Shown in pieces: positions 5,059-63,571 of a stretch of DNA of 64,000 nucleotides (its first letter is position 1; every line of letters starts with the position of its first letter). The stretch covers positions 39,947 through 103,946 of IMG/VR virus record IMGVR_UViG_3300044980_000010, one strand, 5' to 3'. The notes beneath the pieces were generated by a model. It searched no databases, was not told where the DNA came from, and worked only from the letters and a program-made list of their open reading frames with translations. This DNA is from a virus. Both the position numbers and the translations under genes were made by a program.

Positions 5059-5390
5059 TCGGAGAAGACATGGAGTATCCGAAGTGCCCCAAGTGTCCGT
5101 ACAATCAGGATGGACACATCGCACCGTCCACTGTTAAAATAGGAAGCTGGTACTGCCACAAGTGCGGCTCCTACTTCGACAAAATCTCAGGCATCGCTCC
5201 ACCTGCTCCCGAGTTGAAGTCTCTGGTCGTTCTGGAGACCGATGAGAACCTTCGCTGGGCCGCAGAGGAAGTGGAAGGCGCTATCGACAGGGCGCTGGCT
5301 CAGTTCTACGCCGGGATCAACAGCACAGACCGTGAACTGCTGGCGAGCAAGCACATCGCCGTCAATGGCGACTTCAGGAGACCCGAGTGA
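5055..5390 (+). CDS. Zn-ribbon hypothetical protein
   Basis: CPKC...WYCHKCG; ATGA overlap. Confidence 0.6.
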   Translation: MIGEDMEYPKCPKCPYNQDGHIAPSTVKIGSWYCHKCGSYFDKISGIAPPAPELKSLVVLETDENLRWAAEEVEGAIDRALAQFYAGINSTDRELLASKHIAVNGDFRRPE

Positions 5391-5963: not shown

Positions 5964-5967
5964 ATAT

Positions 5968-6552
5968 ATGCGTATTGGGATAGATTGCGACGACGTGTGT
6001 TGTGATTTCCAGAGTTCCTACGTGGCTCTGTTGAATAGGATTTTCGGGAAACCTCCATTGGGGACAGCACCCATTGACTGGGAAGGTTCCAATCTTCAAC
6101 TGAACGCAGAGGAAACAGCACGGTCATGGGCTGAGGTTGCCAAAGTGAAGAACTTCTGGTCAACTCTTGCCCCTCTCCCTTCTTTCGATACAGAGACCAT
6201 CAGGTTGCTACAGACTGCGTTAACTCTGCATGACGTGTTCTTCGTAACCAACCGCTTCGAGACACCGGGAGCCAGCCCGTTGAAGCAGACGAAGTACTGG
6301 CTGTACATCAACGCTTACATCCAAGCGCCAAACGTGCTGATCGCCAAGGACAAAGGCCCCATGGCTTCAGTCCTGCAACTCGATGCCTTCATCGACGACC
6401 GTCCGAAGAACTGCATCGACGTGCTGGCTGCGCGGCCTGCCTGCAAGATTTATCTGGCCGACTCCTCGCACAACCAAGCCTTCAACGATCCGCGCTTCCC
6501 GCGTGTGAAAGACCTGAAGGAGTTCTTGAAGCTGATCTTGGAGGCTAACTAA
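5968..6552 (+). CDS. Second HAD-family 5'-nucleotidase
   Basis: MRIGIDCDDVCCDF, FVTNR, AFIDDRPKN. Confidence 0.85.
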   Translation: MRIGIDCDDVCCDFQSSYVALLNRIFGKPPLGTAPIDWEGSNLQLNAEETARSWAEVAKVKNFWSTLAPLPSFDTETIRLLQTALTLHDVFFVTNRFETPGASPLKQTKYWLYINAYIQAPNVLIAKDKGPMASVLQLDAFIDDRPKNCIDVLAARPACKIYLADSSHNQAFNDPRFPRVKDLKEFLKLILEAN

Positions 6553-6722
6553 TGGCGAAGACGCCTGCCGAGAAGATCGCTGATTTGATTCGCAAGACGA
6601 GCACGGATAACCGTGGCGACTTGTTCCGCGAGATCGCGGTCGCACTGAAGACTAACGGCCAAGCGTACACGGCGAAGGGTTTTGATGTCCTCGCCGTGGT
6701 CTACGAGAAAGGATTCTGCTAA
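6552..6722 (+). CDS. 56-aa hypothetical protein
   Basis: GGAGG RBS; TAATG overlaps at both ends. Confidence 0.6.
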   Translation: MAKTPAEKIADLIRKTSTDNRGDLFREIAVALKTNGQAYTAKGFDVLAVVYEKGFC

Positions 6723-58526: not shown

Positions 58527-58531
58527 AAACG

Positions 58532-58561
58532 ACAAAACCCACACCTCGAAAGGTGTGGGTT
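58532..58561 (-). terminator. Intrinsic terminator
   Basis: AACCCACACCT-TTCG-AGGTGTGGGTT-TTGT. Confidence 0.85.
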
Positions 58562-58572
58562 AGATTTGTTAC

Positions 58573-59042
58573 GCAAAGGAGATCGCTTTCGCGCCCTCCA
58601 AGCTAAGAATGTTTCCTGTTACCAGCCAGAGGTGCTTCGCCAGCACTTGGTCTCACATAGTTTTCGGGACAGGGTACTCCCGATAGGAGAGTGACTAACG
58701 GCTCTGCGCGAACTCTTTGCGGATACGCCGCGTGAGGATCGCTGCCGCTTCATCTCAACGCCCTTTCGTACGCTCCGGGTCCAGAGCACAGATTCAGTTG
58801 GCCTCGGCGGAATCTTTACGCCTTGTGCAGCACCGTGGGTGATCTTTCCCAGCAACTGCTGCGTGCATGCTTACGGTGAACCGAGGTTAGCTCCTGCCGG
58901 AGTATCGACTGTCACTCAACATGCTTGCGCGTTCATCACGCGACTTTCGATGTATGCCTCTACCTCGGAGTGAGGTGCGTGCCAGACTACACCAACATCG
59001 AATATCTTTGGGAGCCGATTGCTCGACTGTTGCCTCCTTTGC
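58573..59042 (-). ncRNA. Large (~470 nt) ornate structured RNA candidate, ROOL/GOLLD-class
   Basis: No credible ORF; 9-bp closing helix GCAAAGGAG/CTCCTTTGC; GNRA loops; lies between tRNA-Asn and a terminator. Confidence 0.65.
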
Positions 59043-59076
59043 TTTCGCATTGGACCCACTCTTGGTACTAAACTTT

Positions 59077-59152
59077 TGGCTGGCCCCAGAGGTCTCGAAC
59101 CTCCACCACACGTGTTAACAGCACGTTGCTCTGCCGATTAAGCTAGAGGCCA
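59077..59152 (-). tRNA. tRNA-Asn(GTT)
   Basis: ACGTG-CTGTTAA-CACGT, U1-A72, G73, CCA. Confidence 0.9.
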
Positions 59153-59439
59153 TCCTCTACTTCACGATGACAGTTCGCGCAGATAAGAACACATTTCTTC
59201 GCCTCTGCTAAAAGTCTGGACCAACTGTAGGTCAAGCCCTCAGAGCATATCGCAAAAGATTTGTCTTCAGGATTCGTGTGATGAAACTCCAGTGCTCTCC
59301 AACACCTGCTATATCCACAGATGCTGCATTTGCCACCGAACAGTTCCTTCAACTTCCTAATCTTGTTCTTCCTCCACCGCTGAACGTTCTCAGTCAACTT
59401 CTTTTTCTGTTCAGGTGAAGAATCTTTCCATCTAGACAT
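59143..59439 (-). CDS. HNH endonuclease
   Basis: GGKCSICGY...ALEFHH..P..K...KCVLICANCHRE. Confidence 0.88.
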   Translation of the reverse strand: MSRWKDSSPEQKKKLTENVQRWRKNKIRKLKELFGGKCSICGYSRCWRALEFHHTNPEDKSFAICSEGLTYSWSRLLAEAKKCVLICANCHREVEDGL

Positions 59440-59614: not shown

Positions 59615-59795
59615 TCATAAACTTTATCGGTGGATTATTGTACCGTTCGCCACCGTTGACGTGTTTTCCCCTGTCCGCACAGGGCCGCTTAGGTATACAC
59701 GCTTGCAACTCAAACTCTGCCTCGCCTCCTCACGGACTGGCTGGGCGTCAGGCTTCGGCTATGGCGCTTTCACGCGAGCCGTCTGAAGCTAAGAC

Positions 59796-59930
59796 ATCAA
59801 GGGGAATGCTCTACCAGACTGAGCTACGTCGCGCATCCGCGAGTCCGCGTTGCTCTCGCTTTAACGGGAGACATTGGATGCTGGAGGCGACGACAGGATT
59901 TGAACCTGCGACCTTTCCCAGATCGTTGAC
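59796..59930 (-). ncRNA. Circularly permuted tRNA-like RNA (YrlA/Y-RNA-like)
   Basis: T-arm plus acceptor 3' strand plus CCA (59919-59882) precede the acceptor 5' strand plus D-arm (59833-59802). Confidence 0.75.
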
Positions 59931-59947
59931 CATTTCTGGTCGAACTT

Positions 59948-60021: not shown

Positions 60022-60304
60022 ACGTGTAAACTTTTAATGAGTGCGCGACGAAGGCCGCTAGGGCAACAACGTCGCGCTCCTCGGTGCATCTATGTCGTAT
60101 GCGTCTCTTTGGTTGCGCTAGACTGATGCAAACTTTGGACGTGGCGGCTTGTTGCGCCGCCTGCTGTACAGCTACGTCTCAGTGATCTCTATGCCGGGGC
60201 CTCACTACTCTGAAAGGAGAATGACAGAGGAGACCCCGGCGTGCTTCGCGGCATTACGCCGCAGGTGCGGAAGAGAACTTGGCCGTGTTTTTCGGCTCAC
60301 ATCC

Positions 60305-60333
60305 AGTATACAGCCAGCCACCATCATTGTCAA
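60305..60333 (-). promoter_or_regulatory. Near-consensus sigma70 promoter driving the RNA array
   Basis: TTGACA-17-TATACT. Confidence 0.85.
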
Positions 60334-60614: not shown

Positions 60615-60881
60615 TTGAAAGGAAAGGCAACATATAAGCTGATGACTGCAAAAGAGCGGCAAACCCGCAGCAAACACAGGCAGAAGCTGGGATTGAAGCT
60701 GGCTCTCTGGCGGCAGCGCGTGAAGGACATGGAAGTCGCGCTAGCCCGAGGTGCGCCGGACGCTGCAAAGAAGATGGCCTTCTGTCGGCAGGAACAGGCG
60801 AAGGCCGAGAAGGCCCTGAGAAATCTCGAAGTCGGTGTCCGGCTCCAGCGCGTCTGGGCTAGCGGAACTTCCGACATGTGA
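60615..60881 (+). CDS. Small basic hypothetical protein (start uncertain, ATG 60642 possible)
   Basis: First ORF after the promoter. Confidence 0.5.
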   Translation: MKGKATYKLMTAKERQTRSKHRQKLGLKLALWRQRVKDMEVALARGAPDAAKKMAFCRQEQAKAEKALRNLEVGVRLQRVWASGTSDM

Positions 60882-60883
60882 TC

Positions 60884-60902
60884 CGTCCCCAACTTGGGGA
60901 CG
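60884..60902. repeat. 19-bp palindrome, copy 2
   Basis: Identical to 14442-14460. Confidence 0.85.
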
Positions 60903-60920
60903 CATACCCACCCACACCAT

Positions 60921-60949
60921 TTCCCAAAAGTCAACTAGGAGTGTACAAT
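60921..60949 (+). promoter_or_regulatory. Possible promoter giving a leaderless polymerase mRNA
   Basis: TTCCCA-17-TACAAT, 6 nt before ATG 60956. Confidence 0.5.
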
Positions 60950-60955
60950 AACTGC

Positions 60956-63571
60956 ATGCCCGAACTTGTGAAACAACTGCGTGCGCTTGATTTGAGCACA
61001 CTGCAACCTCATCTCAATGTGACTGTTATCCATGATGAGGCAGGACTGCTGTTGCTGAAGGATTACATCGCTCGTAAAAGAGCGAAGGGAGATTTTGCAC
61101 TGGGCCTCGATACTGAGACCAACATGTGCGACGACTTCTGGTTTCGACGTGTACGTACAATCCAGATTGGTGATCGAGAAGAGCAGTTCGTAATCGACCT
61201 CTTGAGTTTTGCGAAGACCAAAGAAAGATTGATGGCTACGCAGGGAGAATACGGCGTTAACTGCGCCGGGGTGTACGATGCGATCTTTGCTGTGCTTGAC
61301 CCAGTGTTGTGCGGCGACGAGTTCCTGAAAGTTGGGCAGAACCTTTCATTTGAGTACATGGTGTTCTGGTTCAACTTTGGAAAACGCATCTGGCATCTGT
61401 ACTCGACAGATTTTGCAGAGCGCGTGATTCAAGCTGGCACGATCTCTCTGAAGAAGATGGCTGAGTTCTCCATGGCGTCTATCGCCGCTCGTCACTTTGG
61501 CCTGCTGATCGACAAGACCGAGCAGGAAGGTTTCGATCTGGAAACCCCGCTGACTCAGAAGCAGATCGACTACGCTGCATTCGACGTTCGCTTTCCTCAC
61601 GCCATGCGTCAGGCACAAGTGAACATTATGACTGCGGACCAACTGCTCACTACCGCGCAGATCGAGAACGATGCGCTGGGCACGTTCGCAGACATGCATC
61701 TCAACGGTCAGAACTTGGACGACGAACGCTGGAAGCTGCGTATTCAGCACACAGTGGAGCGCCGCGTCGAAGAGTTAAAGATTCTCGATGCTGGGTTCAT
61801 GCCTATTGTGGGCAACAAGCACAACCAAATCGACGAGCCGGAGATCGAACGGCGTTACAAGCATTGGAAGGAAGACTTCGAGTTGCCAACGCAGCAAGAA
61901 GTTGACCTTGCTGCCCAGAAACGACTGGAACCAGACAAAACGAAGAAGGCCGAGATTGGCTTGCTCTTGAAGGCAGAGGAAAAGAAACGCGCCGCCGAGA
62001 AAGCAAAAGCCCGTGAGTCGTACAGCGAACTCAGCAAGGCTCGCACCAAAGTGAACAACAAGTTGGAGTCGTGCGAGGGCGAAGCCTACATCAACTACGA
62101 CTCACGAGATCAGTTGCTCGCGGCATTGCAACAGATGCTGGGAATGCGAACGATCAAGGACACGACGGACGATACGCTGCTGCGTTTCAACGACCGACCG
62201 TTGATCCAGACTCTCAGAAAATACAAGAAGGGAAAAAAGGATACAGGCACCTACGGGTTGCAGTGGACTCAGCGTTGGATTACGAAGCCTCTGTCAAAAG
62301 AAGGCTGGCGTCACCCAATCGACGGTCGCCTGCATTGTTTGTTCAATCAGCTTGAGGCTGAAACCGGACGCACATCTTCATCGAAGCCTAACGCGCAGAA
62401 CTTGCCGAAGGACGATGAGGTTCGCGCATGTTTCATCTGCGATCCTCCAAACCCCCTGATTCGTGTTTCTGTATGCCACGATGCGGACACGTATTTGGTC
62501 GATAGCAAGTACACTTGCACAGTGTGTAAGGAATACTGCGATACCAAAGACGAAGAGATGTGTATCGTCACGTGCGACATGTCTGGTGCCGAACTCCGCA
62601 TCATTGCGGAACTGGCGCAAGCTAAGACATGGATTATGGCCTTCAACAAGGGCTGGGACGTTCACTCTGTTTCCACGGAGATTCTGGAGCCGGAGAAGTG
62701 GCCTGCACTTGCTTGCAAAGGTGGAGAGAAGTTCTTCGACAAGGAGAAGGGCAAAGAAGTGACTTTGCCGCCCTGCGCCTACTATGCCTTAGATGGCAAC
62801 GGCGAGATGAAGCGGCAGAAGTGCAAGTGCCCTGAGCACGGAGAACTGCGCCAGAAAACAAAGTCCATCAACTTCCTACTGTGCTACGGTGGTGGTCCTG
62901 ATGCGCTGGCTGATGAACTTGGGATCACCGTAGACGCTGCAAAAGAACTGATGCGCCAGCACGAGGTGGCATTCCCCGATGTCTGGGGATACCTAGAACG
63001 TTCTGGTCGTCTGGCTCAACAAGAAAAGCAAGCGCGTGACATGTTTGGTCGCCGCCGCTCATTCCCAACTCCTACCGAGGAGATGGCGAAGGAGTGGTTT
63101 GAAGCTGAGAACGAAGAGAAGCTGAGACTGCCGGAGGAATCCGCAGCCCAGAACGTCTTCAACTTCAAAGCTGCTCAGTTGCGCGAGCCTACGAAGGAAG
63201 AGGAATACAAGCTGACGCACCGTTCTCCTGATTACAAGGAGATCAAGTGGGGAATCCGAGCACTCATCGGCTCCATTGGGCGTCGTGGAAAGAATCACTG
63301 CATTCAGGGAACGAATGCATCCATCATCAAACGCGCCATGGGATGTGGTTTTGACAAAGACCACAAGCCTTACTTGTGGCACACACTACCGCAGTTCCGC
63401 GCAAAGGTGCAGAACATGGTTCACGACGAACTGGTCATCGGGTGCCCAAAGAGATTCGGGAAGCTGGTGGCAGAACTCATCGCAGATGCATTCAAACGCG
63501 CTGCTGCTGAGGTCATGCATCAAGTAGTGATGGAAGCTGACTACCACATCGCAAATCGCTGGATGAAATAG
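60956..63571 (+). CDS. polA: Family A DNA polymerase (3'-5' exonuclease plus polymerase)
   Basis: LDTET, GQNLSFE, YAAFD; ETGRTSSSKPNAQN, DMSGAELR, R..K..NF...YG, NHCIQGT, VHDE. Confidence 0.93.
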   Translation: MPELVKQLRALDLSTLQPHLNVTVIHDEAGLLLLKDYIARKRAKGDFALGLDTETNMCDDFWFRRVRTIQIGDREEQFVIDLLSFAKTKERLMATQGEYGVNCAGVYDAIFAVLDPVLCGDEFLKVGQNLSFEYMVFWFNFGKRIWHLYSTDFAERVIQAGTISLKKMAEFSMASIAARHFGLLIDKTEQEGFDLETPLTQKQIDYAAFDVRFPHAMRQAQVNIMTADQLLTTAQIENDALGTFADMHLNGQNLDDERWKLRIQHTVERRVEELKILDAGFMPIVGNKHNQIDEPEIERRYKHWKEDFELPTQQEVDLAAQKRLEPDKTKKAEIGLLLKAEEKKRAAEKAKARESYSELSKARTKVNNKLESCEGEAYINYDSRDQLLAALQQMLGMRTIKDTTDDTLLRFNDRPLIQTLRKYKKGKKDTGTYGLQWTQRWITKPLSKEGWRHPIDGRLHCLFNQLEAETGRTSSSKPNAQNLPKDDEVRACFICDPPNPLIRVSVCHDADTYLVDSKYTCTVCKEYCDTKDEEMCIVTCDMSGAELRIIAELAQAKTWIMAFNKGWDVHSVSTEILEPEKWPALACKGGEKFFDKEKGKEVTLPPCAYYALDGNGEMKRQKCKCPEHGELRQKTKSINFLLCYGGGPDALADELGITVDAAKELMRQHEVAFPDVWGYLERSGRLAQQEKQARDMFGRRRSFPTPTEEMAKEWFEAENEEKLRLPEESAAQNVFNFKAAQLREPTKEEEYKLTHRSPDYKEIKWGIRALIGSIGRRGKNHCIQGTNASIIKRAMGCGFDKDHKPYLWHTLPQFRAKVQNMVHDELVIGCPKRFGKLVAELIADAFKRAAAEVMHQVVMEADYHIANRWMK

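Follow-up and report, generated by a model that had tools for sequence, protein, structure and literature searches.

What occupies the roughly 500 nucleotides that separate a tRNA-Asn gene from an intrinsic terminator in the genome of an uncultured soil phage? The window that we analysed is the last 64 kb (64,000 nucleotides) of a 103,946-bp IMG/VR virus record whose completeness is estimated at 94%. A sequence-only reading had proposed that this stretch carries no credible ORF and represents a structured noncoding RNA adjoining a phage tRNA gene, either a divergent member of the GOLLD and ROOL RNAs or a new class. Strong covariation among homologs bears out the structured RNA. The RNA represents a new family, well supported as genuine, of the 'large ornate phage RNA' kind; its distribution is narrow, and we consider it rather probable that the locus is a gene for a previously unclassified, modular and pseudoknot-rich noncoding RNA that acts in trans as a stable molecule.

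Genomic setting and distribution

The RNA stretch is encoded on the minus strand, with the replication module of the phage on one side and the packaging module on the other. Here the DNA polymerase A (PolA) gene is followed by an island of ~1.8 kb, the RNA stretch, the terminator, a SprT-like gene, two unknown genes and the gene for the large terminase (TerL), which lies 1.5 kb downstream of the RNA stretch (coordinates are collected in Table 1). The island is mostly noncoding and includes tRNA-Ala, tRNA-like elements, an HNH-type ORF and tRNA-Asn. The latter is directly upstream of the RNA in the window copy and in the related loci L002 and L035 (a tRNA match in L035). Both boundaries described by the sequence-only reading are present, namely the CCA-AAAGUUU end of tRNA-Asn at the start and a terminator with a UUCG-type loop at the end. 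The 11 base pairs of this terminator are followed by UUUUGUCGUUU, consistent with Rho-independent termination, and its position is the same in all relatives, including those that lack the RNA, while its stems vary. The RNA is the last element of a tRNA-rich transcription unit and precedes an ancestral terminator.

Only one sigma70-like promoter was found upstream on the minus strand, and from its match to the consensus it is presumed to start a tRNA/structured-RNA operon that ends with the RNA. The SprT-like gene starts ~10 nt past the U tract of the terminator and has an in-frame GTG inside the terminator stem (58527-58544, minus strand), which leaves no room for a promoter between the two. 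Two other short elements of this region also stand out. A 59-nt noncoding stretch downstream of the promoter (60073-60131, minus strand) retains 85-96% identity among six distinct related loci, including L002, L003, L011, L052 and L057, and is better conserved than the neighbouring genes. In addition, CCA-AGUUUUG separates tRNA-Ala from tRNA-Asn in two loci that lack the RNA (L036, 805-1040; L040, 1195-1440). The word AGUUU also punctuates the RNA operon of the window, and it may be a conserved processing site.

In four soil metatranscriptome studies, contigs from runs chosen for holding the RNA stretch match 58751-58991 at 100% identity and are 150-240 nt each; the flanking 5 kb is sparsely represented. 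Since such contigs reveal neither the strand nor the level of the RNA and may stem from carried-over DNA, we take them as a hint of an abundant RNA, not as proof. The segments 59005-59171 and 58614-58750 are without contig cover, and this absence carries no weight; contigs of two studies that end near 58990 are a weak hint at best. One further RNA-library contig (58408-58613) bridges the terminator, which suggests that some transcription may read through into the late genes.

To define the family, related viral loci were retrieved through TerL, which yielded 62 of them, and a profile of the region then located homologous stretches at the same site in many of these loci. A pattern built from the RNA only independently retrieved further copies from metagenome contigs, where the gene order is the same: PolA, RNA island, RNA, terminator and usually the SprT-like gene, p149, p169 and TerL. 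After removal of duplicates, ~27 distinct sequences share a conserved core that corresponds to 59007-58614 (~394 nt) of the window and ranges from ~330 to 745 nt among homologs (331-744 nt measured). All come from one clade of uncultured ~100-kb soil and peat phages. TerL has at most 26% identity to any cultured phage, which gives no lead to a host. A blastn search of the region against cultured phages matched the tRNA-Asn genes and nothing else, and the SprT-like protein as a query for related loci found nothing. The conserved 14-mer of the RNA is too common in viral contigs to serve as a search pattern by itself. Fourteen pattern matches in bacterial genome contigs, which gave no profile hit, and three more matches to a looser viral pattern, which scored 14-16 bits or not at all, were set aside as chance.

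Every related locus that covers the site and has a TerL identity of at least 68% carries the RNA, and it is absent from more distant relatives (TerL identity of 60-67%). Two of the latter, L036 and L040, keep tRNA-Asn, a spacer of ~90-120 nt, the terminator and the SprT-like gene. Thus, the RNA is cargo inserted between tRNA-Asn and the ancestral terminator, and it is dispensable for the junction between the terminator and the late genes.

Architecture of the RNA

The RNA stretch is not coding. Its ORFs of 41-78 amino acids, compared with 20 homologous loci, found nothing (best E value of 0.04), whereas the flanking SprT-like gene gave 3e-42 as a control in the same search. All six frames are broken by stop codons in nearly all homologs, and lengths do not change in steps of three, in agreement with the lack of a credible ORF noted earlier. 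Folding energies are unexceptional (z-score of -2.1 for the whole stretch with the terminator and closing helix, +0.33 for the core alone); the argument for structure is built on covariation.

The core is made up of a multi-helix domain at the 5' end, the H-type pseudoknot PK-A, variable modules and a 3' pseudoknot core, all of which are maintained by compensatory changes. Four blocks are conserved in sequence: AAAGAUUCGA opens the core, GAAAGUCG follows the first domain, AAGGCCAACU is central and GGCUGGUAACAGGA comes near the end. The G-U pairs fit the minus strand as the strand that folds as RNA.

Table 1. Positions of genes, signals and RNA substructures in the window; paired strands are joined by 'with'.
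Feature	Position	Strand	Remarks
DNA polymerase A gene	60878-63571	plus	
Sigma70-like promoter, TTGACA-17-TATACT	60305-60333	minus	11 of 12 consensus matches
tRNA-Asn (GUU), CCA encoded	59077-59152	minus	ARAGORN; Rfam tRNA, 54.5 bits
Lineage-specific 5' extension	59008-59076	minus	AAAGUUU at 59076-59070; 5' arm of 9-bp helix at 59042-59034
5' domain	58946-59007	minus	Conserved word AGAU(A)UUCGA, followed by conserved GAAAGUC
Helix P1 (UUCGAUGU/ACAUCGAA)	59002-58995 with 58953-58946	minus	Closes the 5' domain; compensatory changes
Inner hairpin ACCUC/GAGGU	58976-58972 with 58966-58962	minus	
Hairpin P2 (CGCGU/ACGCG)	58928-58942	minus	Variants in homologs
Module V1a, closed by GCAUG/CAUGC	58865-58924	minus	Predicted local fold (MFE and centroid); holds GAGUGAC
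Module V1b	58827-58862	minus	6-bp stem GCAGCA/UGCUGC around a hairpin with a GAUCA-containing loop
Pseudoknot PK-A, H-type	58790-58822	minus	Stem GGCG/CGCC, 58822-58819 with 58809-58806
Hairpin GCUCUG/CGGAGC	58772-58787	minus	MFE and sequence comparison; weak
Module V2	58699-58747	minus	CGGC/GCCG, GCGA/UCGC and CUC/GAG nested around a GCGG-CGUAU-CCGC hairpin
3' core	58614-58683	minus	Pa, PK-B, conserved A-rich joiner, Pb and 14-mer
Hairpin Pa (CGGGA/UCCCG)	58683-58679 with 58668-58664	minus	Eight stem variants
Pseudoknot PK-B	58673-58669 with 58619-58615	minus	Pa loop CCUGU with ACAGG
Helix Pb	58653-58649 with 58627-58624	minus	Variable apical hairpin, 58646-58632
Invariant 14-mer GGCUGGUAACAGGA	58627-58614	minus	
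Lineage-specific 3' extension	58562-58613	minus	CGC-GAAA-GCG hairpin; 3' arm of 9-bp helix at 58581-58573
Intrinsic terminator	58527-58561	minus	Hairpin 58561-58536; 11-bp stem, UUCG-type loop, U tract

Helix P1 of the 5' domain changes on both sides between lineages (...GAUGU/ACAUC..., ...GAUGC/GCAUC..., ...GACA/UGUC... and UUUGC/GCAAA). In another, commoner type of 5' domain, pairing in P1 together with an inner helix, P1a, reaches 93.6%, compared with 15-53% when the partner strand is slid. The position of P2 is occupied in homologs by CGUGGA/UCCACG, CGUCC/GGACG or CGCC/GGCG.

The sequence-only reading missed the better-supported pseudoknot, PK-A. A 4-bp hairpin holds the loop AGAUUC (58815-58810), whose partner GAAUCU (58795-58790) stands beyond the conserved linker GAGGCCAACU (58805-58796). 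The AAGGCCAACU linker is displayed by the pseudoknot. Among 16 sequences, PK-A is 90.2% paired, compared with 30-44% in slid registers. Both sides change in seven of the ten base pairs, and the covariation score was reached by none of 500 shuffles, a statistic that overstates significance since the family is small and phylogenetically narrow.

The 3' core carries the second invariant pseudoknot, PK-B, which the sequence-only reading had suggested as a possible pairing of CCUGU with ACAGG. It is formed in all 27 sequences of a covariance-model alignment, occurs in seven sequence variants and changes on both sides in three of its five pairs. The hairpin Pa that presents the PK-B loop appeared only 65% paired in a MAFFT alignment, which placed it out of register; a register-aware parse finds it formed in 27 of 27. 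A model of the 3' core (R1) matches each related locus at a single site and matches nothing in unrelated control loci or in the rest of the window. Its only other matches are weak, at 18.7-23.8 bits, and come from three loci, all of which had been preselected by a pattern taken from the 3' core. Two additional tandem H-type pseudoknots, PK-C and PK-D, separate PK-A from the 3' core in seven relatives; pairing reaches 91% in them, compared with 30-61% in slid registers, and compensatory changes occur at 10 of 23 pairs. With PK-A and PK-B, and with PK-C and PK-D in these relatives, the RNA has the form of a series of H-type pseudoknots.

The modules that separate the fixed blocks vary among lineages, and some look tRNA-derived. 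Homologs have different modules at the position of V1a. The V1b stem varies to GCAGAU/AUCUGC in L003 and L008 and to GCAACA/UGUUGC in L002, and a hairpin related to the one that follows PK-A (CUCUG...CAGAG) is found elsewhere in L035, L216 and L219. Changed versions of the inner hairpin of V2 and of the 3-bp helix beside it (GCG/CGC, GCC/GGC; CCC/GGG) are found in L002, L006, L057, L062, L218 and L222. At the ends, the 5' extension of ~70 nt is missing in relatives, where the core of L002 begins ~5 nt past tRNA-Asn and that of L035 likewise a few bases past it. The 3' extension is replaced in relatives by unrelated hairpins or is nearly gone. The window copy is without a close relative, and thus its variable modules and both extensions remain predictions.

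These comparisons sort the helices that had been proposed from the single sequence. Covariation in homologs sustains UUCGAUGU/ACAUCGAA, ACCUC/GAGGU, GCAGCA/UGCUGC and CGGGA/UCCCG. In contrast, GAGUGAC/GUCACUC competes with the local module preferred by MFE and finds no support among homologs. The CGC-GAAA-GCG hairpin exists but falls inside the lineage-specific 3' extension and is not conserved. Similarly, the perfect 9-bp helix said to close the RNA is present, but a closing role is not upheld, as a perfect 9-mer pair also arises in 29% of dinucleotide shuffles and the arms are absent from relatives. The proposed outline of the RNA must therefore be narrowed: the RNA is real, but only 59007-58614 is conserved, and both ends of the original interval are lineage specific.

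Known RNA families and alternative explanations

The checks that the sequence-only reading had proposed included a search with the ROOL, GOLLD, OLE, RNase P and intron models and a collection of homologs; the latter, with its ~27 sequences, shows helices that covary and no conserved ORF. Rfam 15 (4227 models) was searched at the gathering threshold over the whole window and at E<=10 over 3 kb, a 571-nt slice and the homologs L011 and L035 (slices of 571-941 nt for the three family members). Nothing was found at E<=10 inside the RNA of the window or of the two homologs; matches in the searched slices were to flanking tRNAs, to the terminator look-alike 'sar' and to noise. This holds for OLE, HEARO, riboswitches and ribozymes, and for group I and group II introns. 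An intron reading also fails because the core of L002 starts just after a complete tRNA and ends before the terminator, which leaves no exons. The tRNA cluster of phage T4 encodes the stable RNAs C and D, roughly 120-140 nt long, which are co-transcribed and processed with tRNAs. Compared by description only, these resemble the soil-phage RNA in being stable non-tRNA RNAs from a region visited by homing endonucleases, but they are much smaller. A catalogue of structured RNAs predicted by covariation from the same kind of IMG/VR viral contigs lists motifs of 29-151 nt, and therefore at most a fragment of the soil-phage RNA could be among them (PMC10690425).

ROOL and GOLLD are large RNAs that are found beside tRNA genes in phage DNA and are probably co-transcribed with them (PMC5737381). 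The soil-phage RNA shares this context, as a large structured RNA that adjoins a tRNA gene in a virus record of 104 kb, but the context does not define membership. All three are large, multi-junction, pseudoknotted RNAs of bacteria or phages that have no assigned function and often reside near tRNA genes. However, the ROOL model (RF03087) gives no match at the gathering threshold or at E<=10, nor does the GOLLD model (RF01998) at E<=10, in the window copy, L011 or L035. Moreover, the soil-phage RNA is a string of H-type pseudoknots with swappable modules and occurs in one clade of soil and peat phages only, whereas ROOL and GOLLD come from Lactobacillales, rumen and lake organisms. Of the two options originally offered, the new class is the one that agrees with the covariation and the lack of Rfam matches, and a divergent ROOL or GOLLD member is very improbable. 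We also regard as quite improbable a disguised RNA of a translation- or tRNA-linked ribonucleoprotein, such as a tmRNA-like rescue RNA, or an RNase P-like or other ribozyme that acts on phage tRNA transcripts. The tRNA-operon position and the phage-encoded RtcB RNA ligase would suit such a role, and tmRNA copies are encoded among the tRNA genes of phages. A run of H-type pseudoknots whose number varies by lineage recalls PK1-4 of tmRNA, but this likeness is insufficient for membership: neither ARAGORN nor Rfam detects a tmRNA, and the core ends without a T-arm, acceptor or CCA and has no conserved tag frame or peptide. For RNase P RNA, which would have the conserved regions CR-I to CR-V in order around helix P4, Rfam likewise gives no match. 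Three conserved words do recur in Escherichia coli rnpB, but their order and pairing differ and the local alignment scores no better than shuffles, which indicates coincidence.

The remaining alternatives assign the stretch a role in cis, no role or a role as DNA. As a cis-acting leader of the packaging/late operon, the RNA would modify RNA polymerase or the transcript and so promote read-through of the terminator into the genes from the SprT-like gene to TerL, in a manner like that of HK022 put or of Q/6S. This suits an RNA that is always directly upstream of the terminator, with no promoter room before the SprT-like gene and with one RNA-library contig that spans the terminator. We nevertheless find it unlikely, since the terminator-gene junction is the same in relatives without the RNA, a whole gene for a probable homing endonuclease intervenes between RNA and terminator in L057, L062 and L222, no conserved alternative pairing with the terminator is seen, and the size and modularity of the RNA are far above those of known antiterminator RNAs. 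The great variation of modules among relatives, the D-arm-like words in L009, L035 and L062, the homing endonucleases that flank the site and the more distant relatives without the RNA could also reflect a functionless mosaic of tRNA fragments, hairpins and endonuclease debris left in a recombination hotspot. Against this improbable reading, the three core blocks keep their order, sequence and compensatory pairing while the neighbouring SprT-like protein is only 27-53% identical, and all loci of the subclade that cover the site have the RNA. Finally, a place between the modules for replication and packaging, with TerL 1.5 kb downstream, would be suitable for a DNA-level element such as a pac/cos site or an origin. 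Covariation in pseudoknots and the presence of G-U pairs are traits of single-stranded RNA, and the stretch is inside a tRNA transcription unit and present in RNA libraries, which together render a DNA element hardly credible.

Proposed role and the phage RNA island

If the stretch is indeed a gene for a trans-acting structured RNA, the sigma70-like promoter upstream would drive its transcription along with that of the phage tRNAs, and the RNA would be released by tRNA 3' processing or by RNase E-type cleavage at the recurrent AG/UUU sites, with its 3' end formed at the terminator. The folded RNA would be stable and act in trans, and the conserved single strands held by its pseudoknots could bind a partner. 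Candidates for this partner are a protein, a tRNA-related RNA or copies of the RNA itself, for a kind of role like that of ROOL and GOLLD. A search for antisense targets showed that complements of the two conserved single-stranded segments are not enriched within the window. More tentatively, the RNA could be the founding example of a class of large phage RNAs that are built as chains of H-type pseudoknots, matured from tRNA operons and endowed with a biochemical role of their own, beyond that of a leader or a relic. Such a role might be self-assembly into a particle as for ROOL and GOLLD, the capture of a host factor for tRNA-directed defence or processing, or catalysis. For self-assembly, two self-complementary words, GGCC in the PK-A linker and GAUC in the V1b loop, are candidate contact sites.

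Other elements of the island and its surroundings also relate to RNA. At 59782-59933 (minus strand) there is a sub-threshold Rfam match to YrlA (Y RNA-like; 34.7 bits versus a gathering threshold of 69), in which a T-arm and 3' acceptor strand are followed by a 53-nt linker and then by a 5' acceptor strand and D-arm. This layout reads as a putative circularly permuted tRNA-like element, and it is missing from the close relative L002. The same virus record encodes a full-length RtcB RNA ligase outside the window (G000:C1:17231-18358; 370 bits), and no TROVE/Ro60 gene was found in the record. The combination of RtcB with a tRNA island suggests RNA repair or joining during infection.

Genes resembling those of homing endonucleases also vary in place around the RNA. 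In the window, an HNH-type ORF (59143-59439, minus strand) extends over the 5' end of tRNA-Asn; L003-type phages have an HNH-like ORF just upstream of the RNA (L003, ~5964-6176); and in L057 (~6040-6650), L062 (~5100-5330) and L222 an ORF judged by eye to be AP2-like, and probably coding for a homing endonuclease, lies between RNA and terminator. Homing-endonuclease genes thus flank the RNA on a side that depends on the relative, a behaviour that they also show around conserved targets. The TerL gene is itself interrupted in some relatives, by ~250 nt in L059-L061 and by 600-750 nt in L035, L052, L053, L063, L203 and L208. In all of these the tblastn matches are split, in most of them with overlapping query residues 91-136. 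The insertion is a candidate intron, intein or endonuclease insertion, and TerL of the window is uninterrupted.

The flanking homing endonucleases, RtcB and the YrlA-like element fit the reading of the locus as a conserved, selected RNA gene within an RNA toolkit. Large and intricate RNAs of bacteria and phages are rare, and ribosomal RNAs, RNase P, group I and group II introns, tmRNA, OLE, GOLLD and ROOL each showed unusual biochemistry or architecture. With the soil-phage RNA, this list would gain a class from a source that has hardly been explored. The construction of this RNA is unusually easy to read, as invariant pseudoknots provide a frame and interchangeable modules are set between them, and the two covarying pseudoknots offer immediate handles for probing, mutagenesis and structure determination. 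Together with the YrlA-like element of the island and the RtcB encoded elsewhere in the genome, the RNA bears on the purpose of phage tRNA islands and points to an RNA toolkit that goes beyond simple codon supply.
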